DNA of 64,000 bases from an uncultured Gammaproteobacteria bacterium (GCA_964629685.1 CAZVTT010000001.1:81877-145876), one strand, 5' to 3'. Numbered from the stretch's first letter, positions 26,837-51,063 are shown. Numbers and translations are program-made. Notes: generated by a model not told the origin, from the letters alone.

Positions 26837-26852
26837 CTAAGGACATGAAAAA

Positions 26853-32088: not shown

Positions 32089-32488
32089 CTCACTGTCCTT
32101 CCTGCTACATTTTCGATATCAAACACTGCATTAGCGTCTTGTAAAGAGACCGCTTATCGATCCGGATGTATTATCTGAACCGATTGTCGATCTCTTTACT
32201 ACATTTTCTGAATGGATGTTAAAGTGCGTCTCTTACGGCGCTTTATGCCGTCAGAGACAACTGCCTATTGTACCCGAAACCAATGGAAACTTAAAGATTA
32301 TAGGTTTTACTACTGAAAAGCTGAAACATTCCTAAGCTCGGAATATATGTACTTTCGGTAGTAATAAACGAATTAAGTAACCACACCTTAATCTGCCACG
32401 AAAAAACCGGGCTGGTACCTTTAACATCGCATCCGCGACATTTGCTGGTCCATACCCGGTCCTTGTACTCAACACGCAAACGAAAAAA

Positions 32489-33865: not shown

Positions 33866-34150
33866 GATTTCCCTTTTCCTTTTTTGTTTGCGTGCTGTAA
33901 AGGTGCGTACACCGTCATGACTTCGCTTCCGATGCCAATTCAATGCACTCAAAAAAACCGTTTCCCTCTGAAACGTGTCCTAAAGCTTAGCACAATAATA
34001 ACATTTTATCAATTACTATGAGTCTTCTTATTTCCCTATTATAGCGTTGTTTGGAGAATTATTGTCAGGTATTTATCAGGCACAAAATCGAAATTATCAG
34101 AATGACATATTTCCGTCAGAATAACCTATAATTGAGCTGTTCGCCACTAA

Positions 34151-34183
34151 ATTTTACACATTCGCCTATGGTTTGGTACAATA
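34151..34183 (+). promoter_or_regulatory. Candidate sigma70-type promoter with an extended -10 element, driving tRNA-Met
   Basis: ttacac-N17-(tgg)tacaat lies about 30 nt upstream of the tRNA 5' end. Confidence 0.35.
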
Positions 34184-34213
34184 TGCGGTACATTCGAGCG
34201 CGAAAAGGATGAC

Positions 34214-34285
34214 GCCAGCGTAGCTCAGGGGCAGAGCAGTGTCTTCATAAGGCATGGGTCGGGGGTCCGAATCCCTCCGCTGGCA
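34214..34285 (+). tRNA. tRNA-Met (anticodon CAT), elongator-type; tRNA-Ile2 with a lysidine-modified anticodon is not excluded
   Basis: Cloverleaf fit: acceptor gccagcg/cgctggc, D arm gctc-aggggca-gagc, anticodon stem gtgtc/ggcat with loop tTCATAa, T arm ggggg-tccgaat-ccctc and discriminator A. The T loop has C at position 55. CCA is not encoded. Confidence 0.6.
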
Positions 34286-34306
34286 CCGGAAATACAGAAC
34301 GGATAT

Positions 34307-34805: not shown

Positions 34806-35669
34806 ATGGCAGCAATCGAACTCACATCCGCCCAAAAACAATTCGTTGAATACCTGGAAAGTCGACGTCGTGCTCGCGCGACTATCGTAGCATACAGTAA
34901 AGATATCGAACAGCTTGTCGGCTTTTTAACTAGCCTGGGTAAGAAAACGATAGATGAAATCCAAAGAGATGAACTTGAAGCCTTCCTAAACAAACTTGCC
35001 ACCGATAGCTACACTCCCAAGTCAGTCTCCCGCAAGATTAACTCAATTAAAACGTTTTACCGGTTCCTTAAATCTGCCAGCATCGTTAATGCCGACCCGG
35101 CTGCAGAGATAGAACATCCGAAATATGAAACCAAGCCACCCCGTATACTATCTAAAGTAGAATATCGCGCATTGCGGGATGCATGTCGTGGTGACATTCG
35201 CACCTACGCTATCGTTGAGTTATTTTTACAAACTGGCATTAGAATTGGAGAATTAACGAATCTTTCCCTTACGGATATCCGCGACAGTGAATTGCACATT
35301 GCTGCACAAGAAGGTCACGCTGAGCGGAACGTACCCCTGAATAAAGCAGCTAAAGAGGCCCTTAGCCGCTATATGGAAGTACGCGGTAAAAACACGGTAA
35401 GCAAAGCACTATTCGTAACTAAAACCGGAAAACCGTTACTTATCCGTAATATCCGGACGACTATCGACAGGTATTTCCGTATTGCCGGAATTGAAGGTGC
35501 GAAAGTAAACGACCTGCGCCATACATTTATTGCCCATCATTTAATGGCAGGGACTCCTATTACGACGCTTTCCAAACTGGTAGGTCACAAACGCTTATCT
35601 ACAACCGAGAAATATTTGGAATTGGTAAAAGACAAGCAGACTGAACACGTCAAACTGGAAGAACTTTAA
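34806..35669 (+). CDS. Tyrosine recombinase (XerC/XerD-like phage-integrase family)
   Basis: 287 aa. An N-terminal core-binding SAM-like domain is followed by the catalytic domain with ELFLQTGIRIGEL (Arg I region), LRHTFIAHHLMAGT (the His-x-x-Arg region) and GHKRLSTTEKYLEL (His and the catalytic Tyr). Confidence 0.8.
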   Translation: MAAIELTSAQKQFVEYLESRRRARATIVAYSKDIEQLVGFLTSLGKKTIDEIQRDELEAFLNKLATDSYTPKSVSRKINSIKTFYRFLKSASIVNADPAAEIEHPKYETKPPRILSKVEYRALRDACRGDIRTYAIVELFLQTGIRIGELTNLSLTDIRDSELHIAAQEGHAERNVPLNKAAKEALSRYMEVRGKNTVSKALFVTKTGKPLLIRNIRTTIDRYFRIAGIEGAKVNDLRHTFIAHHLMAGTPITTLSKLVGHKRLSTTEKYLELVKDKQTEHVKLEEL

Positions 35670-35708: not shown

Positions 35709-36368
35709 TTAAAACTCCGTCTTGTAGTGTGGATATGCCTCCAGATATTGCTTACGAACCTCTCCTTTCATATGTGGTATGAAGGGTCGGAATAGGTCAA
35801 CTTTTGTCGGATGATGTTTAAACGTATATAACAGTTTATTTACATAGTTATGTAAATCTTGTGCAAAGCTGATATTTACTATTTTAAAATTCTTTATGGC
35901 GGCGGCACCGGACCTGGCAACAAAATACCCTAAACCCAGAAACGCTTCCAGATAACTGGATGAATATGAACCGGTATCCTGGATTTCATCCAAACCCAAC
36001 GAGAATTGATACCAGGTAAATGGTGTAGTATATATTATCTTTGTTAACCTTCTGGTGGTAATAATAAAAATTGATTTTCGATACGTTTCGCTCATCCACC
36101 ACAGTCCTCCCAGAAACGTACCTCCGGCAAAGAGCACTACCGGTATCGTAAGCCAATTTAAAGGCGCTAATCTATGTAACCAGGAAACAATCAGAAATCC
36201 CAATCCGCAAATAACACCGACTACTCCCACAAGTGCAACCAAGCGCAGCTTAAAAATAATAATGGATTCACGTGTCAGAAAAAGAATTTTTTCACCGGTA
36301 TTCATTCCCGGAAAATGAAGGTCAGTGTAAGGAAACGTAAATTCACCGACGGACAGTACTTCTTGCAC
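35709..36368 (-). CDS. Hypothetical membrane protein
   Basis: 219 aa with two adjacent hydrophobic helices (LRLVALVGVVGVICGLGFLIVSW and LTIPVVLFAGGTFLGGLWWM), followed by a soluble domain. Confidence 0.4.
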   Translation of the reverse strand: MQEVLSVGEFTFPYTDLHFPGMNTGEKILFLTRESIIIFKLRLVALVGVVGVICGLGFLIVSWLHRLAPLNWLTIPVVLFAGGTFLGGLWWMSETYRKSIFIITTRRLTKIIYTTPFTWYQFSLGLDEIQDTGSYSSSYLEAFLGLGYFVARSGAAAIKNFKIVNISFAQDLHNYVNKLLYTFKHHPTKVDLFRPFIPHMKGEVRKQYLEAYPHYKTEF

Positions 36369-36384
36369 AACTCCTCCTTGTCAA

Positions 36385-36942
36385 TCAACCGAACTGCAAA
36401 TATCCGGCCATATGAATATGCTTGTTTACGAATAATGCCTCTTCACGGCACCAGGGAGAAAAATATTGTGGTGTACGGATAATATCATCCAAAAAACTTT
36501 GCCAGGTTACCCATTTCCAGTTTTCCACTTCACCCGGTGCGGGTTTTGGATCGGTCGCATCAACCTTGGCTACCATTACCGGACAAATCTCATTTTCAAC
36601 AATACCGTTATGGTCAGCAAAACGATAACGATACTGCGCTACTTCTTTAACTGCGTCCAAGGGAATAACTATCCCCAACTCCTGTTCTAACCGTCTCACG
36701 GCTGCCTCCGTTACCCGTTCTCCCTGCGCAGGGTGACCACAGACCGTATTTGTCCAATATCCGGGAAAAGCCTTTTTACTCTTTGCTCTCTGTGTAAGAA
36801 GCAAATCTCCATTCAGGTTGAACAAAAATAAAGAAAATCCCCTGTGTAACGGTGTGTCAGACGTGTGTACGGTAGCCTTCGGCGCCGTTCCTAATTCGTG
36901 ATTCTGTTCATTTACCAATACGACTACTTCCGTATCAGCCAT
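36385..36942 (-). CDS. idi: Isopentenyl-diphosphate delta-isomerase, type 1 (NUDIX family)
   Basis: HRGFSLFLFNLNGDLLLTQRAKSKKAFPGYWTNTVCGHP...GE...AAVRRLEQELGI matches the IDI-1 core, with its conserved Cys and Glu and the NUDIX-like box. The start is trimmed to MADTEVV, because the longer ORF would overlap the tRNA-Ile gene. Confidence 0.7.
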   Translation of the reverse strand: MADTEVVVLVNEQNHELGTAPKATVHTSDTPLHRGFSLFLFNLNGDLLLTQRAKSKKAFPGYWTNTVCGHPAQGERVTEAAVRRLEQELGIVIPLDAVKEVAQYRYRFADHNGIVENEICPVMVAKVDATDPKPAPGEVENWKWVTWQSFLDDIIRTPQYFSPWCREEALFVNKHIHMAGYLQFG

Positions 36943-37011
36943 ACCGCTCCTTTTTGATCCGCTGACATGAGTCAGGAATAAACCCGTAAATATTGTATCG
37001 AGTCCAGTTAG

Positions 37012-37083
37012 TGCGTCTGGATGGGATCGAACCATCGGCATCCACTTTATAAGAGTGGCGCTCTACCACTGAGCTACAGACGC
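37012..37083 (-). tRNA. tRNA-Ile (anticodon TAT/UAU)
   Basis: Reverse-complement cloverleaf: acceptor gcgtctg/cagacgc, D arm gctc-agtggta-gagc, anticodon stem ccact/agtgg with loop cTTATAa, variable loop atgcc, T arm gatgg-TTCGATC-ccatc (canonical) and discriminator A. Confidence 0.7.
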
Positions 37084-37197
37084 ATTCATCAACCAGTATC
37101 CGTCGCTACGTACATGTATTTTTGCGCGACAGAACGTGTGATATCCCGTAATTGTACTAAAAAATGACCTAAAATTCGATCATCTAATCCGAATTGG

Positions 37198-38277
37198 TTA
37201 TTTCGTCAGTTTTTGTTCGGATAATAACAGCGCTTTCTGACGACAAAACAATTGTTCAGAGGATGACAGCCGTTCATAAGAACACACCGAAGAAATAAAG
37301 TCAGTACTGGCACACGATTTATCATACAACGATAAACTCGTAATCATACCGGTTACACAAACCGGCCGTAGTGTGTCCGATATCCCCAGGCACGGATCGA
37401 TTATTTGCGCGACAGAACAAGCTGGATGCGTATTTATAATATATGAACCGGTGAGTTGCCCGATGGCACGTTCCGCACCGGCTTTATCAGGGATACCTGA
37501 TATATACACCGCCGCCTGACTAAAATCTTCCGTCATCAACCAGGATGCCACCGCCATCCCTTCGTAACAATACTGACGGTACGAATCAGGTTGTCCCGCA
37601 CACCACATGAACGGTGAAGCATCGGGAAGCTGAAGACCATATTCACGGTTAAACGCATATGTAGCCACGCCGTTGTATACCCCTATCATACAGGTCTGTT
37701 GATACTCAGGCTTGGGGGAAATGTGCAAGCAGACCGATATCCCCTTCTCTATCATCTTCTGGGCATTGCCCCAGTACTCCTGTTCATGACCCGCCGCCGC
37801 ACCGTGGCCTATACCATGAAAACAATTTGCCTGACTATTCCGCTCCTCTATTTCCAAACATACTTTTTCAGCTATCTCGGGTTTAACTGTCCGAGCTGCC
37901 ATTGTCTCCGATAACCCATGGAAAAACCCGTATCCGCACAGATCGGTTAATGCACTGACGGAAATTCTTTTTGACCGTTGATACAGCTCAAAAAATGTTC
38001 TCCCAGCCGTGTGGGTTAAATCGTGACAAGCGCTGAGCGTAATATGTTTGTTCGTTAACAGTCCCTGTGTATAACGAAGTGCGACATCCGTGCCCTCTTC
38101 CCGCACTAACGTTTTTATTGTACGTTCGTAACACGAAAAACTATTCTCTGACTGCAGACAGTGCTGAGATACGGGCACTGCAATATTTTGTAACCGCAAA
38201 AAACCCCATAATCCCGCTATAAGTAAACTAACCAGGCTAATACCAACCAAACGCCGCATCATTGCCACTATACGCAA
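37198..38277 (-). CDS. Cys-rich exported/membrane-anchored hypothetical protein
   Basis: 359 aa. N-terminal signal/anchor LVGISLVSLLIAGLWGFL, then about 16 cysteines spread through the mature part, and two His-rich motifs (HGIGHGAAAGHE). Confidence 0.45.
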   Translation of the reverse strand: MRIVAMMRRLVGISLVSLLIAGLWGFLRLQNIAVPVSQHCLQSENSFSCYERTIKTLVREEGTDVALRYTQGLLTNKHITLSACHDLTHTAGRTFFELYQRSKRISVSALTDLCGYGFFHGLSETMAARTVKPEIAEKVCLEIEERNSQANCFHGIGHGAAAGHEQEYWGNAQKMIEKGISVCLHISPKPEYQQTCMIGVYNGVATYAFNREYGLQLPDASPFMWCAGQPDSYRQYCYEGMAVASWLMTEDFSQAAVYISGIPDKAGAERAIGQLTGSYIINTHPACSVAQIIDPCLGISDTLRPVCVTGMITSLSLYDKSCASTDFISSVCSYERLSSSEQLFCRQKALLLSEQKLTK

Positions 38278-38319
38278 TGCAGGAGTCTGTCACAAGCTGT
38301 GAACGAAAAAACGCAAAGA

Positions 38320-39729
38320 TTATTGATGAATCAGCGCATGAAGTTGATCCTGAAGTTCCAAAGCATGCTTTTTCTGCCGACTGATTATGATATATACCAG
38401 TTTATCTTGCATAACCATATTCTCGGAGATTATCAGTACTCCTTCTTTGGTTTTTTTATCGAATAATACCGGCTTGAGTCGTTCTAGCAATGCCGTGAAT
38501 GAGCGGAATGCACCTTTGGGCAAATCATACGTAGTTACCGAAAGCACATACCACTGATACATAAAATCCCTGCCCAACAGATGCTCTGCCACAGCATAAA
38601 CATAGGTTCCCCCGGTTCGCCGTACATTAGATTCCGTCACCACGAGTTTGCCGTTTTTTGCTACTACAAAGTCAACGTCAAAATATCCGCGGTAGCCGGC
38701 CTTTACATACTGTTCGGCAATAAAAAAGCCGGTATCCACCAATGTGGCGGCTGTTCTGTCGGAAAAAATTCCATAACTAATTTCCACGCCGCCGAACACA
38801 CCGTTTCTATCCACTCTCATGCCACAGTAGTACAGAAAATCTATTCTGCCGCTTTTTAGGATACGGAATTCCACACTTAAACTTCCTCCGCCGACCGTGG
38901 TGTTTACGGGAATGTAGTCTTCAATAATAATCGGAAATTTATCCCAGTAGGCCTCCTCCGACAACCGTTGATGTATTTTAGCTTCACATTCGCGATACTG
39001 CAGGGGTAAATCTCCCGGACGGAAAATGAGTATTCCCGCTCCCGAATGTCCCTTGTTGGTCTTAATTACCACACCGTTTTCGTGAATATATTTATTTGCG
39101 GCAATTTTCGCGGCATCGGCCACATTTACACATACCAACCCTTCTGCCATTTGAAAATCCGGTTCCACCGCAGCACTTTTCTGCGCAAGTTGCCGTATAC
39201 CGGATTTGCTGCCGTAAAAATTAATCGTCCAGGCGTCTTCCTCTTCAGGAGCTTCCGGCGTTATTACTTCCACACCCGCCGCACGTAATGCTTCTACCAG
39301 TTTCAAGAACTGCTGAGAAGTAGAATAGCTTGTAATCATTAACCGTTTTGATTTCTGCCCCGCCTCTACCAGCGCCTGCATCACTTGCTTATCTCCACGG
39401 ATATCATCACAAATGACACCGGTATGCCGTTTAGGAACAAGAATTGTTACCCGTTTCTTTCCGAACAAAGACATGTAATACTGCAGAAATTCTTCACTTA
39501 CCGGTCGGGGAAGCACAAAAATAGAATCGTCTTCACCGGCTAACGAAAAAAGTTCGCGGTCACCTAGTGCCGCATTCTCGGATATTTCTGTCTGGCGCAT
39601 CCGATCGTCAGTAATTGCACAGATAAACGGCCAGACGTCTTCCGACATGTTCCAGATATAAACGGTCGTTTCAAGAAGTTTTCCATTTCCGTTACCGTTT
39701 ACCGGCACCGGGGTACTGTTCAATGACAT
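38320..39729 (-). CDS. ATP-grasp superfamily ligase (carboxylate-amine/peptide ligase-like)
   Basis: 469 aa. A central nucleotide-binding region is followed by KAGYRGYFDVDFVVAKNGKLVVTESNVRRTGGT, which matches the ATP-grasp C-terminal catalytic segment (D/E-x-N with preceding beta strands). Confidence 0.5.
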   Translation of the reverse strand: MSLNSTPVPVNGNGNGKLLETTVYIWNMSEDVWPFICAITDDRMRQTEISENAALGDRELFSLAGEDDSIFVLPRPVSEEFLQYYMSLFGKKRVTILVPKRHTGVICDDIRGDKQVMQALVEAGQKSKRLMITSYSTSQQFLKLVEALRAAGVEVITPEAPEEEDAWTINFYGSKSGIRQLAQKSAAVEPDFQMAEGLVCVNVADAAKIAANKYIHENGVVIKTNKGHSGAGILIFRPGDLPLQYRECEAKIHQRLSEEAYWDKFPIIIEDYIPVNTTVGGGSLSVEFRILKSGRIDFLYYCGMRVDRNGVFGGVEISYGIFSDRTAATLVDTGFFIAEQYVKAGYRGYFDVDFVVAKNGKLVVTESNVRRTGGTYVYAVAEHLLGRDFMYQWYVLSVTTYDLPKGAFRSFTALLERLKPVLFDKKTKEGVLIISENMVMQDKLVYIIISRQKKHALELQDQLHALIHQ

Positions 39730-39780
39730 ACAATATAACCAACAATAGCTGTTTTACGGCAATGGTCAAGAGGGAAACGA

Positions 39781-42165
39781 TTATAATCTGGCACGTTGAC
39801 CGATTTCAGCCTCAACTAACTCCCGCGATCTACCATACTTCAATCGTGACAACTGAATTATAGCTTGAGCGATTTGCGGATTCTGCCGTGAAAGCACTGC
39901 ACTCATATCCTTCGTTAAATCCATACTAAACGGCTTTACGGGTTCATTCTTCACTGTCGTCTTAATATACGCGTTAAACTTGTCTATGTTAATTAAATCC
40001 GATTCATTAAACGTCGGCTGGAATTCATGCTGAAGGTAATTTGCGTCGGTTACGCCTACCCGGAATGATATTAGTGAACCCACGTTTCCGAACACGGCAT
40101 TCTTTACCTCTTCATCCATTTGACCGATAAACTGATTTGCCACCGTTAAATTCAGTCTGTATTTACGTGCCTCGGAGAGAATCTGAGCAAAATCCGGTGT
40201 CGCAAAGTTCTGAAATTCGTCAACATACAGGAAAAAATCCCGCCGCTTTTCTTCAGGAATTTCCTGACGTGAAAGTGCGGAAATCAAAATACGGGGCACG
40301 AGAATTAATCCCAGAAAATTGCTATTCTCTTCTCCTAAATTCCCTTTCGACAGATTGCATAACAATATTTTGCCTTCATCCATGGCATTCCGGAAATTAA
40401 ATGATGATTGTGATTGCCCGATAATATTACGCATTAATTTATTTGTAACAAATCGTCCGAATTTGGATACGATATAATCCAATACTTCCGACTTATGAAA
40501 GTCTGCCGTCTGGGCAATTTGATCAGTCCAATACCTCCGGATAATCGGATCCTGCACTTTGGGGAGTAATTCCTGTACGAATGCACTGTCGGTTAATACA
40601 CGGACAACTTCAATAAACGTATTACCGGGTTCACACATGACTGTTAACATGGCGTTTCTGACCGCATGTTCAAATCTGGGACCGATTATTCCGGTTTTTT
40701 GCGGATCGTACAGTTTATACATCAGTCCGACTATCGAAGTAACCACAAAATGTTTTTGCTCTTCACTGGTGGCTTCCAACATATTCAGACCCATTGGCCG
40801 TTCTGAATCGGATGGATCAAAATAAATAACGTCTTCAGCTCTCGAAGGTGGAACCCGCTTTAATACGTTATGGACCAAATCACCGTGGGGATCAATAACG
40901 CCGACTCCGTGACCGGCTTCAATATCCTGGGCAATCATTTCCTCCAATAGCTGGGACTTTCCGGTCCCGGTTTTTCCGATAATGTACATATGTCGGCGAC
41001 GATCATCTAATCCCAGGTATATCGGACGCTCCACTCCCCTATACCGGGATTTCCCGAGGAACAATCCCGAAGTAGGTATTTGCGACGGTGCCGGAGCTCG
41101 TTTTGCATTGAGCCAGTATATATGGGCTGTTTCAATAGATTTATTCGGTAAATGGAAAATACTGGCTAGTTCATCACTGTTCATAACACTATATTGCTGT
41201 AAGAACGGCAAATGAAAGCTGAAAATCGGAAAATACCGGTAAATAAAATCCATCATGAAAAACTGCTTAAACGGCATTTTTACTTTCCAGAATGTATTCG
41301 TTTCCGAAGAAAATTGTTCTAAGGCAGCAATAATATTTTCCAGGTGATTCTCCGCCATATGTTTGTCGTGCGACGATACGACAATACGAATAACGGTATT
41401 AAATCCCGGTTTATTTATTTTCTGTTCAACGGCTTCCAGTGATTTCTGATCCACTTTAAAACTGGCTTTTTCCGGATTGGCTTCATTCTTTTTCTGAACG
41501 GAAATATAGGAACGACCCTGAGACTTCCAGTGATGTCCCGCTGGCTGAACCAGTATTTGGATACAGGCAGCTTCTCCCGTCTGCATTTTTGCCAGTACGG
41601 AGGTGATGGTTGATAGTGCATCCGTGGGTAAATCACGATATACCCGCAGGGGGAAGTAATCGGAATACCGTAAACGCAGAGCCGCAAATGCAACTTTTCC
41701 CTGATCGGTAAAAAGATTGTATTCTTCCACTTCTTTTATTTCCGCTCCGGGGTATGCTCCGTGAATTTGTTTTTCTACCAGATCCATATATTTTCTGGGA
41801 AGCGAAACGTAAAACCGAATATCTTCTGGTCTGGCAACTATTTCAAAAGAAATATGTGGCTGGGGTTGCAGAAATGACAGAAATTCATGCTTATAAATAC
41901 TATGCAAACTTGCAAAAAGTTGCTCTGCAGCATCAATTTTTATTTCATTATCACGCGGAACGGCTACCTGCATCGTTACGAAATTCAACGAATCCTGTAA
42001 GCGGTCCCGGTATTTCCATAAAATAAAAATCACATATCCCAGTCCTGCCAGGCAGGCAACAAAAAACAGCATGAGAAACATGCTCAGAAGAATCATTTGA
42101 GCCTGGTAGATCAAATCCTGAACCGCTACCGGCATGGAACTAGTTGCTTGCGATAAGTTTTCCAT
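39781..42165 (-). CDS. Membrane-anchored FtsK/HerA-superfamily P-loop ATPase of the VirD4/TraD/TraG coupling-protein type
   Basis: 794 aa with an N-terminal TM helix. The Walker A IIGKTGTGKSQLL is followed about 15 aa later by VIDPHGDL (the DPxGD motif typical of coupling proteins), and the Walker B is FFLYVDEFQNFA. Confidence 0.55.
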   Translation of the reverse strand: MENLSQATSSMPVAVQDLIYQAQMILLSMFLMLFFVACLAGLGYVIFILWKYRDRLQDSLNFVTMQVAVPRDNEIKIDAAEQLFASLHSIYKHEFLSFLQPQPHISFEIVARPEDIRFYVSLPRKYMDLVEKQIHGAYPGAEIKEVEEYNLFTDQGKVAFAALRLRYSDYFPLRVYRDLPTDALSTITSVLAKMQTGEAACIQILVQPAGHHWKSQGRSYISVQKKNEANPEKASFKVDQKSLEAVEQKINKPGFNTVIRIVVSSHDKHMAENHLENIIAALEQFSSETNTFWKVKMPFKQFFMMDFIYRYFPIFSFHLPFLQQYSVMNSDELASIFHLPNKSIETAHIYWLNAKRAPAPSQIPTSGLFLGKSRYRGVERPIYLGLDDRRRHMYIIGKTGTGKSQLLEEMIAQDIEAGHGVGVIDPHGDLVHNVLKRVPPSRAEDVIYFDPSDSERPMGLNMLEATSEEQKHFVVTSIVGLMYKLYDPQKTGIIGPRFEHAVRNAMLTVMCEPGNTFIEVVRVLTDSAFVQELLPKVQDPIIRRYWTDQIAQTADFHKSEVLDYIVSKFGRFVTNKLMRNIIGQSQSSFNFRNAMDEGKILLCNLSKGNLGEENSNFLGLILVPRILISALSRQEIPEEKRRDFFLYVDEFQNFATPDFAQILSEARKYRLNLTVANQFIGQMDEEVKNAVFGNVGSLISFRVGVTDANYLQHEFQPTFNESDLINIDKFNAYIKTTVKNEPVKPFSMDLTKDMSAVLSRQNPQIAQAIIQLSRLKYGRSRELVEAEIGQRARL

Positions 42166-42592
42166 GAACAGATTTTACGCTTTTATGCACCTGTAATAGT
42201 CTCCGGGTACACCATTCAGCTAACCACCTGAACGAATTTTCGACACCGAGTTTGAGCCCGTCCGCTATCTGCTGATCGGTTAACGGAACCGGACCGGACT
42301 TTACGTTTTGGACAGGCACCGCATTGCCAACCGGGACCACGCCCATTTGTTGTACTGCCGGAGGCAACTCTACAGTAGGCTTCTCTACCCGTACCCCCAC
42401 TTCCGCAACTTCTTTAGGCAATTCCACTTCTTGCCCTACGGCCTTAAGTATTACTTCACTGGTAGCTAGCGACGCACCGCCGACAATTTCTTTATTTCCA
42501 CCACTAACACTAATCTGCGGAGGCAAATTTGCCTGATTAGCAGGAGCAGAAGTTTTTCCCGTCAGAGCGGGATCAGTGGGCAGATCAGTCAT
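42140..42592 (-). CDS. Small Pro/Val-rich hypothetical protein
   Basis: 150 aa of low-complexity sequence with a PxV-rich repeat character. Its stop overlaps the start of the ATPase gene by about 25 nt. Confidence 0.35.
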   Translation of the reverse strand: MTDLPTDPALTGKTSAPANQANLPPQISVSGGNKEIVGGASLATSEVILKAVGQEVELPKEVAEVGVRVEKPTVELPPAVQQMGVVPVGNAVPVQNVKSGPVPLTDQQIADGLKLGVENSFRWLAEWCTRRLLQVHKSVKSVHGKLIASN

Positions 42593-42645
42593 AGCGTAAT
42601 CATATCATAAATAAGCCGTTCAGCTTCAGGTATGTCGCGAATGTA

Positions 42646-44919
42646 TCAGGCTGCAGACACTATCGGAAATAGAGCAATAATACCACTTGACGGAAGCGTA
42701 GCCTTCGCTTTTATTCCTGCTGGTTTGTGTTGAAGTGTTGACCCTTTACCTTGCTCACGTTTCATATTTAAATACCAAATAATAGCCAGTAGTAACCATG
42801 GACGGCCTTCACCGTTCGGTTCTAATTCAGCTAGGTCACCATCCGGTAGTAGCTTTAGAACCTTGGAAGCACCGTGTACTTCCGCTGTACTGCGTTTGGC
42901 TGTAACTATCCGATCAAATTGACGCAATAGATTCCAAAACAACCAAACCTGATAAAACTTCCCCACCACAAACCATTCTTTAATTAACGTAATCTGTTGA
43001 AAATTTGCATGATCTTTCTGTAAGGAATCGAGCTCTGCACTCATCACCGTTTCCGTTTTCGCCAGCACGGTTGATATTGCAGATAACTCTTTTATTGCCG
43101 GTTCTAACAACGCAATTTGTAACCATTGATGTTCATCCACATGTTCCGGCAATACTGCCGCTACACCTTTCTGCATTTGTTCACCTACTGCTGTAGCCGG
43201 AATAACACTTTGCGGTTCCATTCGTGGTTGATCTTCCCTAATGTTACGCATAACCTGCTTAATGGGAATACGTAAGTGATCCTGCATCCGGGTTTTCAAA
43301 CCTTCCCATAATCCCGCCACACGCTCTTTAGCTTCATTAACATATTCGTGCACGTTTCGAAACATGCGACGAATTGGTGGAGAAATCTGTTTTTCAGTCT
43401 GTTTCCGCTCGGGAGGGGCGGGTGTCAATTCTATTTCACTTGCGATAACCAACGCACCCACAGCAAATACAGGCAACTCCTGCAATACCTCAGTCGACGG
43501 AGTTCCAGCAGATACAGCCATGAATGTATCGTGCGTATGCTCTCCCGCAATCCGCATCCGGGAAGCGGCTTCACGATAGACCTCAGACTTTCGTCCGTCA
43601 TGTACCTTGACCGTCACGAGAGGAGGAGGCTCCTCCGTTAATACCGATTGCGCCTGTCGGATACCTAAGGATTCACGTAATGACCGCTGAAGCGTTAACC
43701 ATCGTACGCGTAATCTCCGGGGAAGAATATCCCGAACCGATGTATTCCCCGACACTAACTGATGTAGTAACACCGGCTGCTGCTCCGAGGAGGGCACAAC
43801 CGGAAAATCAACCAATCCGGCGGATATCGGACGTATCGCCGGCTGAGCCTGTATATCCTTTTCAGGAGTACGACCAACGGCATTGGCTTCCGCAACTAGC
43901 GGTACGGATTTTCTGACGGCACCTGTCTTGGCAGTCGTAGATTCTTCACGCCTAACTTTTTTCCGCTGCTCATGGTACTTTTGAGTCTGTTGGTAATATC
44001 CTTTTTCCACTCCTACAACTCTGGATGTTCCGATATCCGAAGTGGATACTCTGAACACATCCGCTTCCTGAGAAGAAACCGGATAGTCTACTACTCCACC
44101 TCCGACATGCTCCTGTTCATTTTGGGGAAATGACGGTTGCTCAAATCTGACAATATTACCTCGGACAAACGCAGCCAATCCTTGCTGTACCGTTTCATTC
44201 GCGAGAATTTGCCTTTCAAATTCGACCACTAACGCAGCTACCTGTTCCTGCTGTGCTTGGATTACCTGAGGAAACCGATCTACATCATGTTTAATCCGCT
44301 CTAAATAAGGAGTTGCGGCTAATTTTGACGCTTCGGATTCGTAGCTCTGCTCGATGGCAGCAAATATATCGGTTATGCCTAACTGTCGCTCGTAAAATAA
44401 CGGTTTCGAAAAGTCTGTGGTATCTATCTGATCTTCACCCGTAGAAAGTGACCGTTGGGCTAATATCCGTTGTAACCGTTGAAGTTCACCTGTCGTTCCC
44501 TGATATTCAATCGCCAATGCCTGTACCCCGTCTCCCTGGTCCGTATATAAATAAATATAGCTTCGTCCGTAGCCTAAATCTTCGCTGATCACCACAGCTT
44601 GTTCAACGGTATCATCAGTAATCATTCTCTGCTCTGCTTCCATTACCCTAAATATTCTGTCACCGCCGACTTCGGATAAGTCCACCAGTTGCTCAAGTGT
44701 CTTCCCGCTATTCATCCACCGCCCTTCCGGTGAAAGCGTATATCCGAACGCCATGAGCGTTTTATGGTCGACAAATTCAGCCTGGTAGGTTACCGCATTT
44801 TCCGCAGCCGTTTTCGCCACTAACGTTAAATCACCGGTTTCTTCGTACCGCTCTTCAAGATAATCCTCTTCCCGCTTTGCCACATACCCGTGACCATCGG
44901 ACGCTTCAATAGCCGGCAT
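42646..44919 (-). CDS. Hypothetical protein, 757 aa
   Basis: A long ORF with no recognisable motif. It is the first gene of the five-gene minus-strand cluster. Confidence 0.5.
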   Translation of the reverse strand: MPAIEASDGHGYVAKREEDYLEERYEETGDLTLVAKTAAENAVTYQAEFVDHKTLMAFGYTLSPEGRWMNSGKTLEQLVDLSEVGGDRIFRVMEAEQRMITDDTVEQAVVISEDLGYGRSYIYLYTDQGDGVQALAIEYQGTTGELQRLQRILAQRSLSTGEDQIDTTDFSKPLFYERQLGITDIFAAIEQSYESEASKLAATPYLERIKHDVDRFPQVIQAQQEQVAALVVEFERQILANETVQQGLAAFVRGNIVRFEQPSFPQNEQEHVGGGVVDYPVSSQEADVFRVSTSDIGTSRVVGVEKGYYQQTQKYHEQRKKVRREESTTAKTGAVRKSVPLVAEANAVGRTPEKDIQAQPAIRPISAGLVDFPVVPSSEQQPVLLHQLVSGNTSVRDILPRRLRVRWLTLQRSLRESLGIRQAQSVLTEEPPPLVTVKVHDGRKSEVYREAASRMRIAGEHTHDTFMAVSAGTPSTEVLQELPVFAVGALVIASEIELTPAPPERKQTEKQISPPIRRMFRNVHEYVNEAKERVAGLWEGLKTRMQDHLRIPIKQVMRNIREDQPRMEPQSVIPATAVGEQMQKGVAAVLPEHVDEHQWLQIALLEPAIKELSAISTVLAKTETVMSAELDSLQKDHANFQQITLIKEWFVVGKFYQVWLFWNLLRQFDRIVTAKRSTAEVHGASKVLKLLPDGDLAELEPNGEGRPWLLLAIIWYLNMKREQGKGSTLQHKPAGIKAKATLPSSGIIALFPIVSAA

Positions 44920-45490
44920 ATGATTTTAGCCGAATATATTCGGACTTAATTAATGTTGTTCTGGTAAATTTCTGCATACATATTTTTATCATTTCCGCTC
45001 CGGTAATAAATGCCGGTACTAAAACCATATTCCCCATTAACTGGTTGCGGAGAAACGGTAAACCATTAACAAAAGATAGGAGCAACCCCTGCCAAGTTCG
45101 TGGATACATTCCCCAACTATCCAGTAGCCAAACACCAAAATTCGTCCAGAGAAAAAACCATAAACTGATGCCGATGCCAGCCGCAAGAGAAAAACCAAAT
45201 TTACCCAAATAACGCTTCACCTTACTGGCCGGAAAACCAATTGCAAGGCCTGCCAATGCGTATGCAGACCATGTAAATAACGCAACGGAAGTATTTCCTA
45301 TAAACACATCACTGAATGCCATAACAAACAACGGAACAAGAACGGACCAACGCTTACCGCCATATACGGCTGCCAAAACAGTTACCGTAGTGACTAATTC
45401 GACATTCCAGCCTAAATCAAACCACAAACGTTCAGCTATGGCCATAACGACTACTGCACAAAGCAAAATATTACGGATTTGGTGATTCAT
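44906..45490 (-). CDS. Small polytopic membrane protein, possibly an ECF-transporter S component (CbrT-like)
   Basis: About 190 aa with 5-6 hydrophobic helices. It lies within a cobalamin-related module. The start is estimated at MNHQIRN. Confidence 0.35.
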   Translation of the reverse strand: MNHQIRNILLCAVVVMAIAERLWFDLGWNVELVTTVTVLAAVYGGKRWSVLVPLFVMAFSDVFIGNTSVALFTWSAYALAGLAIGFPASKVKRYLGKFGFSLAAGIGISLWFFLWTNFGVWLLDSWGMYPRTWQGLLLSFVNGLPFLRNQLMGNMVLVPAFITGAEMIKICMQKFTRTTLIKSEYIRLKSYAGY

Positions 45491-45920
45491 ATTTCCACTC
45501 CATTTGATCTCCTGCCTTAACCGGTTTTTTGTCTGCAGCAATATCTCCGGACTGTCCGTTCAGATAATAAATCCAAGCTTTTTGCGGTGTCGCACTATAG
45601 GTGCCAATCCTTTCAACAAAAACTCCGAAATCATATTGTTTGGTAATCAGTGCCAGTTGTTTTTCTTCAGCAGCTTTCTGCAGTGCGCTAAACACTGTAC
45701 CGGCGTCAGCAACCGTTACTGTCTCGGCCTGGTCAGGAGCAAATTCAATTCGCACGCCGACACCTTGTATTTCCTGAATCTGAGCTGGTGAATTCAGCAG
45801 TGTCGCGGATTTTACCGAATCACCGGTATATATTCTGTAGCCTATTTGAAGCACAAAGCCGACACATACGGCCAGAATAATTAACTTCTTGTACGATATC
45901 ATTTGCCTCCCGTTGCCCAT
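45471..45920 (-). CDS. DUF4430-like exported/lipoprotein, of a type often associated with cobalamin uptake
   Basis: A signal sequence with a lipobox-like LAVC, and the C-terminal motif AWIYYLNG...GDQMEWKYE that is reminiscent of DUF4430. The start is estimated at an internal Met. Confidence 0.35.
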   Translation of the reverse strand: MGNGRQMISYKKLIILAVCVGFVLQIGYRIYTGDSVKSATLLNSPAQIQEIQGVGVRIEFAPDQAETVTVADAGTVFSALQKAAEEKQLALITKQYDFGVFVERIGTYSATPQKAWIYYLNGQSGDIAADKKPVKAGDQMEWKYESPNP

Positions 45921-46102
45921 AAAAAAACCTTCTACTCCGAGAAGGTTAAGATACGAAAAAATATGATACGCCAATTCTTCCGTATAAATTCCTGCTCGGG
46001 ATAGGTACGAGTGAGGCGAGTTCCGGACTTTTCCGATATACTTCGGAATCACCGTTGCGGCACAGTGGCGGATTTTCACCGCCTTCCTTCATCCTCTCTC
46101 TT

Positions 46103-46678
46103 TTATTTATTAATACGCCTGCGTGGTATTCTGAACCAATCTACATCTGCAACACCAGCATCACTATTTATAAACCGCGCGAGCTGAAAAAACAAGTCCG
46201 ATAATCTGTTTATATATTTGATTATCGCTTCCATCTGTGGTGGAGACAAATGAAAATCAGTTGGTTGCAGTTGGTAAAATGATACCACCCGCCGTTCTAC
46301 CCGCCTGCAAACTGACCTGGTTATATGCGTATATGCGGCAATGGTAGTGCCGCCCGGCAGGATAAAATTATTCAATTCCGGCAGCTTCTCTTCCATCGTG
46401 TCTATCCATACCTCCATGTCTTCCGCACAAACAGCTAATTGATGAACGTCACCACCCCATCCCGCCAATACTCCTCCGATAGTAAACAGATCAGACTGTA
46501 CGTCCTGCAAAAAGTTTCTTGTATCCTCATCCGTAATTTGTGACGCTACCAACCCTACCCAACTATTTAACTCATCAATCGATCCGTACACGTCAACCAA
46601 ATCATGTGACTTGGAAACCCGCTTGCCGCCAAAGAGTGATGTTTCTCCTTTATCTCCTGTTTTCGTATAGATTGGCAT
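46103..46678 (-). CDS. ATP:cob(I)alamin adenosyltransferase, PduO type
   Basis: The N-terminus MPIYTKTGDKGETSLFGGKRVSKS is the hallmark PduO-type signature (IYTKTGDxGxTsL). Confidence 0.8.
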   Translation of the reverse strand: MPIYTKTGDKGETSLFGGKRVSKSHDLVDVYGSIDELNSWVGLVASQITDEDTRNFLQDVQSDLFTIGGVLAGWGGDVHQLAVCAEDMEVWIDTMEEKLPELNNFILPGGTTIAAYTHITRSVCRRVERRVVSFYQLQPTDFHLSPPQMEAIIKYINRLSDLFFQLARFINSDAGVADVDWFRIPRRRINK

Positions 46679-46690
46679 AATGGTTATTTT

Positions 46691-46990
46691 CTATTTTCGC
46701 TTCTCAACCAAGTGATAAGTTACAAACCCAATTGGCCCGAAGACTACTCCCAGAAGCGCCCAAACCATTGATTTACTTTCAGCATAAATCCAATACGCAA
46801 ACCCACTATGTGCCACAACCCGTAAAATGGCATTGCTTAACCCAATCAACCAATATTCTGCCGGTTGCGGATTAGCAGGTAATAATCCTATCGCAGGCAT
46901 GACGGGACCGACAATATACGGTAGTAAAAACAATCCGACTGCTATTGCTGCATAACGTTCAGTTTTTGTAAATTGCATATTCCTCCTCAC
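46691..46990 (-). CDS. Small membrane protein, 99 aa
   Basis: Three hydrophobic helices. An RBS gaggagg precedes the start, and it is co-directional with the cobalamin module. Confidence 0.4.
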   Translation of the reverse strand: MRRNMQFTKTERYAAIAVGLFLLPYIVGPVMPAIGLLPANPQPAEYWLIGLSNAILRVVAHSGFAYWIYAESKSMVWALLGVVFGPIGFVTYHLVEKRK

Positions 46991-47070
46991 CCGTATTTGG
47001 GTTACTTAAGCGATATCACAAATTATATATAAATACAAAATGATTATCGCACATTTATTACTTTCCGTTT

Positions 47071-47094
47071 ACGAAAAAGGCCTGTTTCCAGGCC
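47071..47094 (-). terminator. Rho-independent terminator downstream of nrdJ
   Basis: Read on the minus strand: ggcctggaaacaggcc followed by ttttt. Confidence 0.5.
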
Positions 47095-47122
47095 TTCTCC
47101 GACGAATAAAACGTGTTAAATT

Positions 47123-49564: not shown

Positions 49565-49632
49565 AGAACCTCCTTAATATAGAGTGTCATTAAGAGAATA
49601 ATGACTAACGTAATGTTCATACGAACAAAATT

Positions 49633-50079: not shown

Positions 50080-50178
50080 CGTCGCAGTCTTCGTTGTTAA
50101 CCTTATCCAGATGTATCCGTACTTCCCTTTTGTATAATTTTAGTAGGATAGAACGCTCTTTTCCTTGTGAAAACTAAA

Positions 50179-50194
50179 ACGCTATATCTGGTGC
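50179..50194. promoter_or_regulatory. Candidate NrdR box upstream of nrdR
   Basis: acgctatatctggtgc matches 12/16 positions of the acaCwAtATaTwGtgt consensus, about 100 nt upstream of the nrdR start. Confidence 0.25.
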
Positions 50195-51012: not shown

Positions 51013-51063
51013 ACTGCCTCCTTCGTCTACCGTAGACAATTGCGGGAATTTTATCTCCCGTCA

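Follow-up and report, generated by a model that had tools for sequence, protein, structure and literature searches.

A coupling-protein-like ATPase and its small upstream neighbour in a syntenic chromosomal region of a Gottesmanbacteria-type bacterium

Introduction

Do five closely packed genes of no evident housekeeping role make up a single system, or are they neighbours of separate origin, and what might the large ATPase encoded among them do? This question is raised by a minus-strand block at positions 37198-44919 of the 64-kb stretch of DNA analysed here, which is called the window throughout. The initial annotation had offered three readings of the block: a minimal type IV secretion-like or DNA-translocation module, a graspetide-like peptide-modification system with an export ATPase, and a defence system built around a HerA/FtsK-like motor.

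Gene layout and synteny

Five near-touching or overlapping ORFs were found on the minus strand, exactly at the coordinates first reported. They encode a Cys-rich protein of 359 aa (37198-38277, with the ATG at 38262 as the probable start), an ATP-grasp ligase of 469 aa (38320-39729), a membrane-anchored ATPase of 794 aa (39781-42165), a Pro/Val-rich protein of 150 aa (42140-42592) and a large protein of 757 aa (42646-44919), and the successive gaps between them measure 42, 51, -26 (an overlap) and 53 nt. Homologues exist elsewhere for four of the five ORFs and the fifth, the Cys-rich one, recurs in identical form on further contigs of the strain, which excludes chance ORFs and confirms that all five are real genes. 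The tight co-directional spacing that had drawn attention to the block is present, but it is not peculiar to these genes, which belong to a series of some 16 genes on the minus strand (35709-51606), the strand that carries most of the genes of the window.

Comparison of 81 related species-level loci revealed a recurrent gene order: NrdR, B12-dependent RNR, PduO, (DUF4430, DUF6580), large protein, small protein, ATPase, ATP-grasp/ligase, tRNA-Ile(UAU), Idi, Xer and DivIC. DUF4430 and DUF6580 are B12-uptake genes, which in some species stand between the large and the small gene. The remaining genes of the window are housekeeping genes; the block itself is syntenic in relatives, which is half of what had been named as refuting the initial reading, but it has no clear housekeeping annotation and its ATPase is not FtsK/SpoIIIE proper. 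The ATPase is as conserved as the RNR, with a dN of 0.027 in both. No T4SS or relaxase gene was recognised within the 64-kb window when 45 of its ORFs were scanned against Pfam, and no relaxase or mating-pair family is a recurrent neighbour in 161 related CPR loci. Jointly with the reading of the ATPase set out below, and at the same moderate level of confidence, we regard the region as vertically inherited core chromosome of a Gottesmanbacteria-type ultrasmall (CPR) bacterium and not as a mobile five-gene system.

The tRNA gene and the tyrosine recombinase that had been noted near the cluster are both there, the former a tRNA-Ile with anticodon UAU (37011-37083, minus strand; ARAGORN, Rfam) and the latter a XerC/XerD-like protein (34806-35669, plus strand; Pfam, NCBIfam). 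Implicit in that observation was a mobile or defence island integrated beside tRNA-Ile by means of the recombinase, an idea that also gains from the existence of ATPase homologues on plasmids and phages, from the matches of the ATPase motor to the mad8 (3.8e-17) and HerA models in PADLOC and from the position of the Cys-rich gene, a strain-specific insertion adjoining the tRNA. It is nevertheless very improbable, as four of the five genes are syntenic, together with the tRNA and the recombinase, across the 81 species-level loci. Because the order is the same there, both are normal members of the conserved neighbourhood. The same tRNA-Ile stands between the ligase (or the next gene) and Idi in loci L001, L011, L033 and L082, and it is not the integration site for the four conserved genes. 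The recombinase is a housekeeping-type gene of the syntenic context; in 27 loci, where DivIC accompanies it, its identity is 54-80%, and in L082 it is 96%. The block carries no island signature: Idi and DivIC are likewise syntenic in relatives, its G+C content (0.42-0.49) is that of the flanks, and scans of viral contigs returned no close relative. As for defence, only the motor matches PADLOC models, the other four proteins have no match, no further defence components were detected with PADLOC, and the motor gene is vertically inherited and syntenic; the proposal of a defence system was therefore dropped.

The Cys-rich gene is the one exception to this synteny. It sits on a strain-specific indel of 1.15 kb (approximately 37187-38337, limits from the comparison with L082), where the nearest relative, whose ATPase is 96% identical, has about 140 bp. 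The gene is missing from all 83 related Gottesmanbacteria-type loci, the nearest relative included, no homologue was found in any of more than 160 fetched loci, and identical copies are limited to contigs of the same population. It is a strain-specific, clean insertion of a single gene, and the five genes do not form one system as had been supposed. Absence of the block from close relatives, which had been proposed as a check, was seen for this 1.15-kb gene only, the other four being conserved in relatives. The product contains 16 Cys and an N-terminal hydrophobic segment, features that suggest an exported or membrane-anchored protein, and has no Pfam, NCBIfam, PADLOC, PHROG or PDB match.

Architecture of the ATPase

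The 794-aa ATPase is composed of three parts, an N-terminal TM helix, a VirB4-NTD-like domain (Pfam DUF8128) and a T4CP-type P-loop motor. The single TM helix covers approximately residues 24-50 (42016-42096, minus strand), with a hydropathy peak of 2.67 at residues 31-49, and is followed by WKYRDR, so that by the positive-inside rule a short N-terminus is predicted to lie outside and the remainder in the cytoplasm. The N-terminal domain (residues 52-365; 41071-42012, minus strand) has the fold of the VirB4/TrwK N-terminal domain; its DUF8128 assignment is a precomputed one, available for the window protein and its homologues, and BFVD fold matches to phage proteins were obtained for it at 2.6e-21 (TM 0.69-0.74). 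The motor (residues 366-794; 39784-41070, minus strand) is matched by TrwB_AAD_bind, DUF87 and TraG-D_C, besides mad8 and HerA, and contains the Walker A motif GKTGTGKS (40954-40977, minus strand) and the Walker B motif LYVDEF (40213-40230, minus strand), both invariant in alignments A1, A2 and A3; DEFQN is invariant in the ATPase alignments as well. The candidate for the all-alpha domain that coupling proteins carry within the nucleotide-binding domain is a helical insert (residues ~460-590), seen just in the full-length AF2 model, whose confidence is low (pLDDT 45.6); TrwB_AAD_bind covers just residues 389-454.

To which branch of the superfamily the motor belongs was assessed from profile matches. 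DUF87, TrwB_AAD_bind and T4SS-DNA_transf exceed their Pfam cut-offs and TraG-D_C falls just under its own (21.5 vs 22). The NCBIfam models for TraD/VirD4 gave weak matches, far under cut-off (59 vs 366 bits for TIGR03743), and the scores were 41.7 against a cut-off of 647 for TIGR03754, 33.9 against 250 for NF045973 and 19.5 bits against 643 for the VirB4 model TIGR00929; the CedD and HerA matches in NCBIfam were weak too. When the profile of the ATPase family was compared with the PDB, the best sequence matches were TrwB (3.5e-7) and DotL (5e-6), and no match to TrwK/VirB4 was found at E<=1. At the level of sequence, the motor is nearest to TrwB and DotL and not to VirB4. Compared with VirB4/TrwK, the window protein combines an N-terminal domain of VirB4-type fold with a motor of T4CP-like sequence, and no VirB3, VirB6 or VirB8-like Pfam match was found in the window; its neighbours in relatives are housekeeping genes. 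FtsK/SpoIIIE proper was also considered and rejected, since there is no match to FtsK_SpoIIIE (PF01580), no gamma domain and a single TM helix. The initial domain calls were sound: an ATP-grasp protein, a membrane-anchored VirD4/TraD-like ATPase of the FtsK/HerA superfamily, a Cys-rich exported protein and two unknowns. The ATPase is 66-80% identical across 80 species-level loci and its family comprises 6,211 clusters (50% identity) at E<=1e-30.

Relatives of the ATPase in known systems

Of the relatives with a functional placement, the clearest are coupling-protein genes of Bacillus plasmids, which adjoin the relaxase gene there, at the upstream end of the annotated Tcp-like gene cluster for conjugation. 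On the B. subtilis plasmid NZ_CP032854.1, a full-length homologue (WP_121549396.1, annotated as 'DUF87 domain-containing protein'; query residues 81-770, ~24% identity, E 1e-47) immediately precedes a replication-relaxation (relaxase) gene, after which come genes for a TcpE-family protein, an ATPase of VirB4 size and a 'conjugal transfer protein'. A 65-kb plasmid has a similar layout. The homology includes the N-terminal domain, and the two proteins have in common the first N-terminal motif (W/F-E-I-V..IRFYV..P), the Walker motifs and a size of ~800-900 aa. In contrast to the plasmid gene, which is followed by the relaxase and then TcpE/VirB4-like mating-pair genes and whose product ends in an acidic tail, the window gene is a vertically inherited chromosomal one that encodes a clear N-terminal TM helix, and the 64 kb of the window include neither a relaxase gene nor mating-pair genes. 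A small ORF precedes the window ATPase, whereas the ~1.8 kb upstream of the plasmid gene are free of annotated genes, and the ORFs in them do not exceed 103 aa.

In classical T4CPs the motor comes immediately after an N-terminal membrane domain made of two helices. TrwB (R388), TraD, VirD4 and DotL share with the window ATPase a P-loop motor of the same family, in which its best PDB matches lie, but the window protein has one TM helix (residues 31-49) and then a VirB4-like domain of ~310 aa. The features of a coupling protein that the window ATPase lacks are the two-TM membrane domain directly before the motor, a score above the NCBIfam TraD/VirD4 cut-offs and the association with relaxase and/or mating-pair genes, which is seen for the plasmid homologues. 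Proteins of phrog_5156 from Bacillus/Geobacillus phages (phage G gp156, SPO1 gp27.4 and TP-84 gp48) are of the same family and architecture (7.4e-100) but are phage-borne and ~20% identical to the window ATPase.

A study of Patescibacteria (Quinonero-Coronel et al. 2025, PMC12102498) counted 5,713 T4CP homologues in 2,918 genomes and placed just 148 near virB4. These homologues, which were matches to VirD4-type HMMs and numbered about two per genome, stand apart from virB4 in the majority of CPR genomes, and the study suggested exaptation; the CPR T4SS was traced to monoderm conjugation machinery, with the relaxase usually missing (PMC12102498). The family of the window ATPase and these T4CP homologues are probably the same set of proteins, although the VirB4-like N-terminal domain, a small upstream partner and the gene neighbourhood are not described there.

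The reading that we favour, with moderate confidence, is that of a coupling ATPase, exapted or detached, that works with an adaptor and lies beside unrelated or loosely linked genes. The functional unit would consist of the 150-aa protein and the ATPase, the latter a member of the VirB4/VirD4 branch of the FtsK-HerA superfamily whose gene would, in CPR bacteria, have been parted from the relaxase and mating-pair genes. The ATPase may form a membrane-bound ring that recognises a macromolecule as its substrate and either feeds it onward or powers its transfer, the most likely outlet being a CPR type IV secretion apparatus encoded elsewhere, and the small, fast-evolving upstream protein could act as adaptor or regulator. 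The 757-aa protein would be a lineage-specific, probably membrane-associated candidate for a partner or cargo. A role related to T4SS or translocation, as in the module first envisaged, is reasonable for the ATPase, but it does not extend to the five genes as one system. Some observations count against this reading. No T4SS component is present in the 64 kb, and Tn-seq of S. epibionticum, as cited, found the T4SS essential and the T4CP homologue of this organism dispensable, an argument that would hold if that homologue carries DUF8128. In favour of the reading, the T4SS locus of the same organism has no recognisable coupling protein (PMC10633639).

The small upstream protein and the question of a stand-alone translocase

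The 150-aa protein was rightly labelled as Pro/Val-rich (14.7% Val, 8.7% Pro). Its N-terminal part looks disordered and its C-terminal part contains a conserved helix, SFRWLAEWCxRRL. The stop codon overlaps the start of the ATPase gene by 26 nt or precedes an alternative ATG by 4 nt. The protein is encoded directly upstream of the ATPase in 77 of the 81 related loci according to tblastn, and is called as the -1 ORF in 71-72 of them. In distant loci, a small co-directional upstream ORF was found in 52 of 69, against a background of 35% (35-43% of other large genes also have one), and these ORFs fall into at least four sequence-unrelated families. Because no homology could be detected between small proteins from different CPR clades (hhalign probabilities <1%), it is by position that the small protein is a conserved partner. 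All 80 distant CPR loci and the basal lineages keep a small protein and the ATPase without the large protein or the ligase, and in distant clades the pair neighbours DnaX, GyrB, IF-3 and GtrA-like genes.

T4CPs are DNA-dependent translocases. The ATPase might accordingly work on DNA without any T4SS, either in chromosome segregation and dimer resolution, as an FtsK analogue acting with Xer and DivIC, or in DNA uptake during natural transformation. Its place in the FtsK-HerA superfamily, the TrwB_AAD_bind and T4SS-DNA_transf matches and the weak ones to CedD and HerA are consistent with this alternative. It is also a highly conserved core gene amid replication, division and repair genes; in 27 loci Xer and DivIC lie at a distance of 3-10 kb, in distant clades DnaX or GyrB is close by, and the detachment from virB4 in most CPR genomes for which exaptation was suggested (PMC12102498) fits as well. 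However, we judge a stand-alone translocase decidedly unlikely: the features missing for FtsK proper (Pfam match, gamma domain, more than one TM helix) are missing here too, Xer lies on the opposite strand several genes away, no DNA-binding or ssDNA-handling partner is encoded beside the ATPase, and the nearest relatives of known context are conjugative coupling proteins.

The ligase and the large protein

The 469-aa protein carries a Pre-ATP-grasp domain (PF18604, 33.6 bits against a cut-off of 27.5) and aligns over nearly its full length with PDB entries 8ynd, an 'ATP-grasp peptide ligase' (3.8e-11, residues 65-455), and 3wvq, PGM1 (3.7e-10); it matches BesA and LdmS weakly, and all NCBIfam equivalog scores are far under cut-off. 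By its Pre-ATP-grasp domain and core alignment, it is an ATP-grasp ligase of the PGM1/L-amino-acid-ligase type. With the pheganomycin peptide ligase PGM1 and the L-amino-acid/peptide ligases (3wvq, 8ynd; BesA, LdmS) it shares the Pre-ATP-grasp domain, the core and a conserved E-x-N region; it differs in its low identity, in having no natural-product cluster around it and in sharing its slot with a Ddl-like ligase. The earlier idea of a graspetide-like system fails because the ligase is of the PGM1 type and an ORF for a precursor peptide would not fit into the 42 and 51 nt on the two sides of its gene.

Of the 81 loci, 53 have this ligase (in 51 it is a called ORF), 13 have a Ddl-like ligase of 342 aa at the same site and 14 basal ones have neither; the exchange between the two ATP-grasp families apparently took place several times on the ATPase tree. 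Since the slot is filled elsewhere by a Ddl-like enzyme, the ligase probably serves envelope or peptide chemistry and is linked to the ATPase loosely or not at all. Its retention directly downstream in 51-53 loci, and its replacement there by another ATP-grasp enzyme, could also reflect a functional link.

The 757-aa protein is lineage-specific and fast-evolving. It has no Pfam, NCBIfam, PADLOC, PHROG or PDB match and only 2 matches among 5.8e9 proteins, and it is free of Cys and lacks both a signal peptide and a clear TM segment. A conserved N-terminal part of ~250 aa is followed by an unalignable centre of ~450 aa and a C-terminal domain of ~200 aa, which is present in 47 loci and has two Trp-rich hydrophobic helices, the motif W.LLAIIWYL.MIRE.G and a GVIFA-like tail. 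Its dN is 0.547 against 0.027 for the ATPase, a rate ~20 times faster. In other lineages the slot holds other unrelated large proteins, or none.

Effectors of T4SS, such as XVIPCD carriers, have variable N-terminal and central parts and a conserved C-terminal domain. The large protein, variable N-terminally and centrally with a conserved C-terminal domain and the rapid evolution just given, recalls this design, and several unrelated large proteins in one slot are what would be expected of interchangeable cargo. Such considerations could point to a single Gottesmanbacteria-specific system of four genes, in which the ATPase, assisted by the small adaptor, would export the 757-aa protein or insert it into the membrane, while the ligase would modify the cargo (for example a peptide N-terminus, as PGM1 does) or the local cell wall. 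Most crown-group loci repeat the order large, small, ATPase, ligase, and the alternation of two ATP-grasp families downstream is compatible with such a system. Even so, it seems rather unlikely, given the basal and distant loci that keep the small protein and the ATPase without the other two, the loci without any large protein and the species in which DUF4430 and DUF6580 separate the large and small genes. Adjacency is weak evidence here, given the dense packing and shared direction of genes in CPR genomes. The rapid change of the large protein, finally, is centred in the disordered-looking middle of ~450 aa, where weak constraint, and not an arms race, may be the cause.

Conservation of the gene neighbourhood

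The initial annotation had treated five minus-strand ORFs as one novel system. Their placement was confirmed exactly: Cys359 (37198-38277, 359 aa), Grasp469 (38320-39729, 469 aa), ATPase794 (39781-42165, 794 aa), Small150 (42140-42592, 150 aa) and Big757 (42646-44919, 757 aa), with intergenic distances, in this order, of 42, 51, -26 (overlapping) and 53 nt. The labels given to them were also correct as regards the 16 Cys residues of Cys359, the transmembrane (TM) segment of ATPase794 and the Val/Pro-rich composition of Small150 (14.7% Val, 8.7% Pro). Tight co-directional packing characterises the window as a whole and is not peculiar to these genes. The window is mostly minus-strand, a run of about 16 minus-strand genes (35709-51606) contains all five, and their G+C content (0.42-0.49) equals that of the flanks. 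Operon limits were left undefined by a promoter/terminator scan, which gave no more signal than shuffled sequence would. Elsewhere, the window consists of housekeeping genes typical of small genomes (MurD-like ligase, RecF, FtsH, TyrRS, Fpg, a 5'-3' exonuclease, class II RNR, NrdR, GMP synthase, PBP1), and no type IV secretion system (T4SS) or relaxase genes were recognised within it.

Relatives of ATPase794 were found in 467 genomes. Of more than 7,000 relatives scored, the best 120 share 75-100% identity with it and, where named, are assigned to Gottesmanbacteria, Microgenomates or Patescibacteria. Synteny was compared across 80 species-level genomes, each represented by a single locus (ATPase identity 66-80%), and in three further loci retrieved by exact protein look-up. 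The recurring order is NrdR, B12-dependent RNR, PduO adenosyltransferase, in some loci DUF4430 and DUF6580, then large protein, small protein and ATPase, followed by the ATP-grasp ligase, tRNA-Ile(UAU), Idi, a 219-aa TM protein, Xer on the opposite strand and DivIC. Small150 was matched by tblastn in 77/81 loci, always directly upstream of the ATPase, and matches were also obtained for Idi (58/81), PduO (57/81), RNR (55/81), Grasp469 (53/81), Xer (27/81) and DivIC (26/81), the counts of the more distant genes being lowered by contigs that end short of them. Cys359 was matched in 0/81. Since the tRNA-Ile(UAU) gene (37011-37083, minus strand) and the Xer-type recombinase gene (34806-35669) are syntenic in relatives, they are ordinary neighbours and not marks of integration.

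The evidence thus supports a conserved chromosomal neighbourhood in place of a five-gene system. What had been named as speaking against such a system was a syntenic block with clear housekeeping annotation; the block is indeed syntenic, and the clear housekeeping annotation is absent. An integrative or mobile island is contradicted by the synteny, and a defence system by the synteny together with the absence of partner components. A false lead is also removed: neither the tRNA nor the recombinase nor the Cys-rich protein belongs to a mobile or defence system, and the ATP-grasp ligase probably does not either.

The nearest relative, L082 (ATPase, RNR and Xer each 96% identical to those of the window), passes from the ligase directly to tRNA-Ile and Idi. 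In the nucleotide alignment, window positions 37187-38337 (1.15 kb, exactly the Cys359 gene) stand where L082 has ~140 bp. Cys359 carries a hydrophobic segment at its N-terminus. None of the fetched loci encodes a homologue, searches of Pfam, NCBIfam, PADLOC, PHROG and PDB (a profile-vs-PDB search included) gave no match, and identical copies are confined to short contigs of the same population. Cys359 is a strain-specific single-gene indel, outside any conserved system.

The ligase slot

Grasp469 has a Pre-ATP-grasp domain above cut-off, and its residues 65-455 align with PGM1 (3wvq) and, at 3.8e-11, with 8ynd, a solved 'ATP-grasp peptide ligase', while matches to BesA and LdmS are weak. A graspetide macrocyclase was rejected because of the peptide-ligase and PGM1 matches and because the gaps of 42-51 nt are too small for a precursor gene, so that the suggested graspetide-like system with a precursor-peptide ORF beside the ATP-grasp gene finds no room. 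A 342-aa Ddl-family protein, with E 3e-33 to E. coli DdlB yet under the cut-offs of the curated Ddl NCBIfam models, occupies the Grasp469 position, ~2.3-3.6 kb after the ATPase start, in 13 loci (L001, L002, L004, L006, L007, L010, L015, L019, L027, L028, L031, L045, L052). The PGM1-type and Ddl-like ligases are mutually exclusive at the site and never occur together in the fetched loci; the Ddl-like enzyme is scattered over at least four groups on the ATPase NJ tree, and neither is present in 14 basal loci. The two ligases may be able to replace each other, and this would point to a cell-wall dipeptide or peptide ligase in the slot.

The main alternative for the locus is a four-gene system specific to Gottesmanbacteria, comprising large protein, small protein, ATPase and ligase. 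The recurring gene order is consistent with it. Against it stands the ligase distribution, as none was found in 80 loci of distant clades. Because the ATPase occurs without any ligase in basal and distant lineages, a functional link between Grasp469 and the ATPase is not established.

Architecture of the ATPase

ATPase794 has a single strong TM segment (residues 31-49). DUF87, TrwB_AAD_bind and T4SS-DNA_transf score above Pfam cut-offs and TraG-D_C just below, whereas the NCBIfam matches to TraD, VirD4, CedD and VirB4 are weak and all far under cut-off. For ATPase794 and for the family profile alike, the best PDB sequence matches are TrwB and DotL, and TrwK/VirB4 is not among the matches at E<=1. 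Walker A (GKTGTGKS) and Walker B (DEFQN) are unchanged in relatives as far as 34% identity. Judged from its sequence, the motor is like that of type IV coupling proteins (T4CPs). FtsK proper was rejected as the identity of ATPase794 in membership tests.

Residues 52-365 are covered by Pfam DUF8128 in precomputed annotation, a name unmentioned in the literature searched, and a profile-vs-PDB search with this domain returned nothing meaningful. An AF2 model of the domain, built from a 23-sequence alignment of diverse relatives, reached a pLDDT of 90.8 and a pTM of 0.90, and the top 14 PDB matches to it in Foldseek are all TrwK chains, with E down to 3.5e-9. The full-length protein was modelled poorly by AF2 from a shallow alignment (pLDDT 45.6), and this model was left out of the fold search. 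On the strength of the TM segment, the TrwK-like predicted fold and the T4CP-like motor, ATPase794 reads as a TM anchor followed by a VirB4-type N-terminal domain and a T4CP-type motor. Classical T4CPs have two TM helices and then the motor, whereas ATPase794 places a single anchor and a VirB4-type domain before it; from VirB4 it differs in the motor itself. This architecture bears on the relationship between VirB4 and VirD4 ATPases.

The small upstream partner

In the 77 close loci, the Small150 homologues overlap or almost touch the ATPase start and share the C-terminal motif S.RWLAEWC.RRLK. The comparison was extended to 80 metagenome loci whose ATPases are 35-45% identical to a distant representative. 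Among the 69 with upstream room, 52 have a co-directional ORF of 60-260 aa within 150 nt upstream of the ATPase, compared with a background of 35% for other large genes. Among the close and distant proteins, at least four families recur: the window type, 'LDELHD', 'PGVNRFFLEQEAKIK' and 'DLIEKEWV..DPY'. Every family combines a low-complexity N-terminal half with a helical-looking C-terminal part. By hhalign no homology was found between the four families or between them and the C-terminal domain of the large protein (probabilities <1% in both comparisons). The pairing of small protein and ATPase is therefore positional and family-specific. It is suggestive, but not proof, of a co-evolving adaptor or regulator of the ATPase.

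Downstream of the ATPase, the distant clades have DnaX, GyrB, a GtrA-like protein, IF-3, Xer and DivIC. A Big-like protein was found in the distant set only in L119, itself a Gottesmanbacteria-type locus, and a homologue search with a profile of distant representatives recovered the same Gottesmanbacteria clade again.

The large-protein slot and the B12 block

Big757 lacks Cys, a signal peptide and any clear TM segment. Among 5.8e9 proteins it has two matches, itself and a 40% relative in the L082 genome. Iterative HMM searches of neighbour proteins revealed, in 47 loci, a conserved domain of ~200 aa at the C-terminus, with two Trp-rich hydrophobic helices (F.FA...W.LL; W.LLAIIWYL.MIRE.G), basic flanks and a GVIFA-like tail; the N-terminal domain is present only in a subset. 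Profile-vs-PDB searches with the whole protein and with the C-terminal domain gave nothing meaningful, and no family recurred when 20 C-terminal domains were scanned against Pfam at E<=1. Relative to L082, and with synonymous sites saturated in all genes, dN is 0.027 for both ATPase794 and RNR, 0.060 for Grasp469, 0.114 for Small150 and 0.547 for Big757. Most of the Big757 divergence lies in residues 250-700 (~20% identity), compared with 56-88% in residues 1-250 and ~45% at the C-terminus. Other lineages have unrelated large proteins ('NLLHFLRK' family, Zn-ribbon family) or none in the same slot. Given the few homologues and the unrelated replacements, Big757 is lineage-specific and its slot variable. 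It could be a cargo of the ATPase, a membrane-associated partner of it or merely a fast-evolving neighbour.

Mutually unrelated alternative large proteins stand upstream of the small partner in L017, L023, L026, L039 and L040, and in L012, L048, L073, L077 and L134, that of L134 being directly upstream of the ATPase. One family (540-600 aa) ends in NLLHFLRK...H(M/L)(Y/F)A. Another set (~390-470 aa) has Cys-rich C-terminal Zn-ribbon-like motifs, CRCSG..HFHCPG...CP.CG in L012, L048 and L134 and only CP.CG-type motifs in L073 and L077.

The DUF4430 and DUF6580 pair lies on either side of the large protein in relatives. In the window, these two genes are preceded by a cobalamin riboswitch (45998-46137, minus strand; Rfam 40.2 bits) with a terminator-like hairpin. 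As the riboswitch comes just after the PduO-type adenosyltransferase, B12-dependent RNR and NrdR genes, the whole looks like a compact B12 uptake-and-use block (45998-46137, 45926-45947, 44906-46079, 46103-46678 and 47123-50079, all minus strand). The DUF6580 stop overlaps the Big757 start by 14 nt, so that read-through regulation of the Big757 gene from this block is possible.

Relation to conjugative coupling proteins

Full-length homologues, N-terminal domain included, are encoded on Bacillus plasmids (query residues 36/81-770, ~24% identity, E ~1e-43 to 1e-48), and homologues also occur on plasmids of haloarchaea, Streptomyces and others. The N-terminus of the plasmid homologue has the WEIVA..IRYFVWVP motif in common with DUF8128. 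On the B. subtilis plasmid NZ_CP032854.1, the gene for an 886-aa homologue immediately precedes a replication-relaxation (relaxase) gene, which is followed by a 'conjugal transfer protein', a TcpE-family protein, an 848-aa VirB4-size ATP-binding protein and more transfer genes. A similar arrangement, including TcpD and TcpE, is present on a 65-kb plasmid. This gene layout indicates that in monoderm plasmids the family occupies the coupling-protein position of a conjugation gene cluster.

In a 50%-identity library, 6,211 clusters match the family at E<=1e-30, most of ~800 aa. Some members bear 600-1,200-aa Pro/Ala-rich tails or N-terminal TPR arrays, and these fusion partners were uninformative. 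In the distant ATPase relatives P0139, P0140, P0142, P0146, P0152, P0157, P0159 and P0164, the motor is followed by a Pro/Ala/Val-rich C-terminal tail of 600-1,200 aa in which short motifs recur (PPPIGAPPVDL, L.ITDITGG, IHFVDP..LERP). N-terminal TPR arrays of ~980 aa take the place of such tails in other relatives. The family also matches phrog_5156 (7.4e-100), whose members in Bacillus/Geobacillus phages, phage G gp156, SPO1 gp27.4 (L181) and TP-84 gp48 (L180), are all without annotation. Phage loci with this ATPase family are gp155/gp156 in Bacillus phage G and gp47/gp48 in TP-84, where a 126-aa ORF overlaps the ATPase gene start and echoes the small-partner arrangement. Scans of viral contigs found no close ATPase relative with family-specific patterns and only 13 distant motor-domain matches with general patterns.

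A survey of 2,918 Patescibacteria genomes counted 5,713 VirD4-type T4CP homologues, only 148 of them near virB4, and traced the T4SS of these bacteria (CPR) to monoderm MPF-FATA machinery, with relaxases rarely found (Quinonero-Coronel et al., 2025, PMC12102498). Because the T4CP homologue of S. epibionticum is dispensable while its T4SS is essential, the authors proposed that such homologues may have been exapted. The T4SS of S. epibionticum is without recognisable coupling and relaxase proteins (Wang et al., 2023, PMC10633639). Neither paper describes a VirB4-like N-terminal domain in T4CP homologues, and no VirB3-VirB4 fusions are reported in PMC12102498. The family itself is already catalogued, as Pfam DUF8128, as the NCBI 'T4SS DNA-binding domain-containing protein' and in the 2025 survey. 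As far as the searched literature shows, what is new is the predicted VirB4-type N-terminal fold in a T4CP-type ATPase and, likewise, the small upstream partner, the variable large-protein slot and the alternating ATP-grasp slot.

The evidence supports Small150 and ATPase794 as the only robust functional unit of the neighbourhood, and this unit as a detached, modified descendant of monoderm conjugative coupling proteins. In the most economical mechanism, we infer ring assembly, substrate, T4SS cooperation and what the small and large proteins do: ATPase794 would form a membrane-anchored ring and, with the small protein serving as its adaptor or regulator, would recognise a macromolecular substrate and hand it to, or energise, a CPR T4SS encoded elsewhere. 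The main alternative for the ATPase is a translocase independent of the T4SS, acting in DNA segregation or uptake. We consider rather improbable the broader reading of a near-universal, previously undescribed CPR core module, in which a hybrid ATPase (own TM anchor, VirB4-type N-terminal domain, coupling-protein motor) with a fast-diversifying small adaptor would either work as a minimal machine for translocation or be the substrate receptor that the essential CPR T4SS is missing, and the interchangeable, fast-evolving large proteins just upstream (here Big757) would be its cargo, that is, host-interaction effectors.

The locus shows the make-up of the abundant CPR 'orphan' coupling-protein homologues, with a predicted VirB4-like N-terminal domain, their own membrane anchor and a small upstream partner, adjoined in Gottesmanbacteria by a slot for variable large proteins. 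The small partner and this slot thus supply concrete, testable adaptor and cargo candidates, a useful handle on what the CPR T4SS or the orphan coupling proteins do.

Other features of the window

The UAU anticodon of tRNA-Ile, found at the same syntenic position in the four relatives checked, is noteworthy as an unusual reader of AUA, a codon more often read by a lysidine-modified CAU tRNA. Two tRNA-Met(CAU) genes (within 26767-34287) are 7.4 kb apart, compared with ~560 bp in L082. Between them the window carries genes for a GH5 cellulase with a CBM2 domain (27645-29591) and for two proteins without assignment, one of 785 aa (29731-32088) and one of 487 aa (32489-33952); G+C rises to 0.53-0.55 at 30-32 kb, inside the 785-aa gene, from ~0.45 elsewhere. 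As a candidate for acquired DNA, this extra stretch is stronger than the five-gene cluster.
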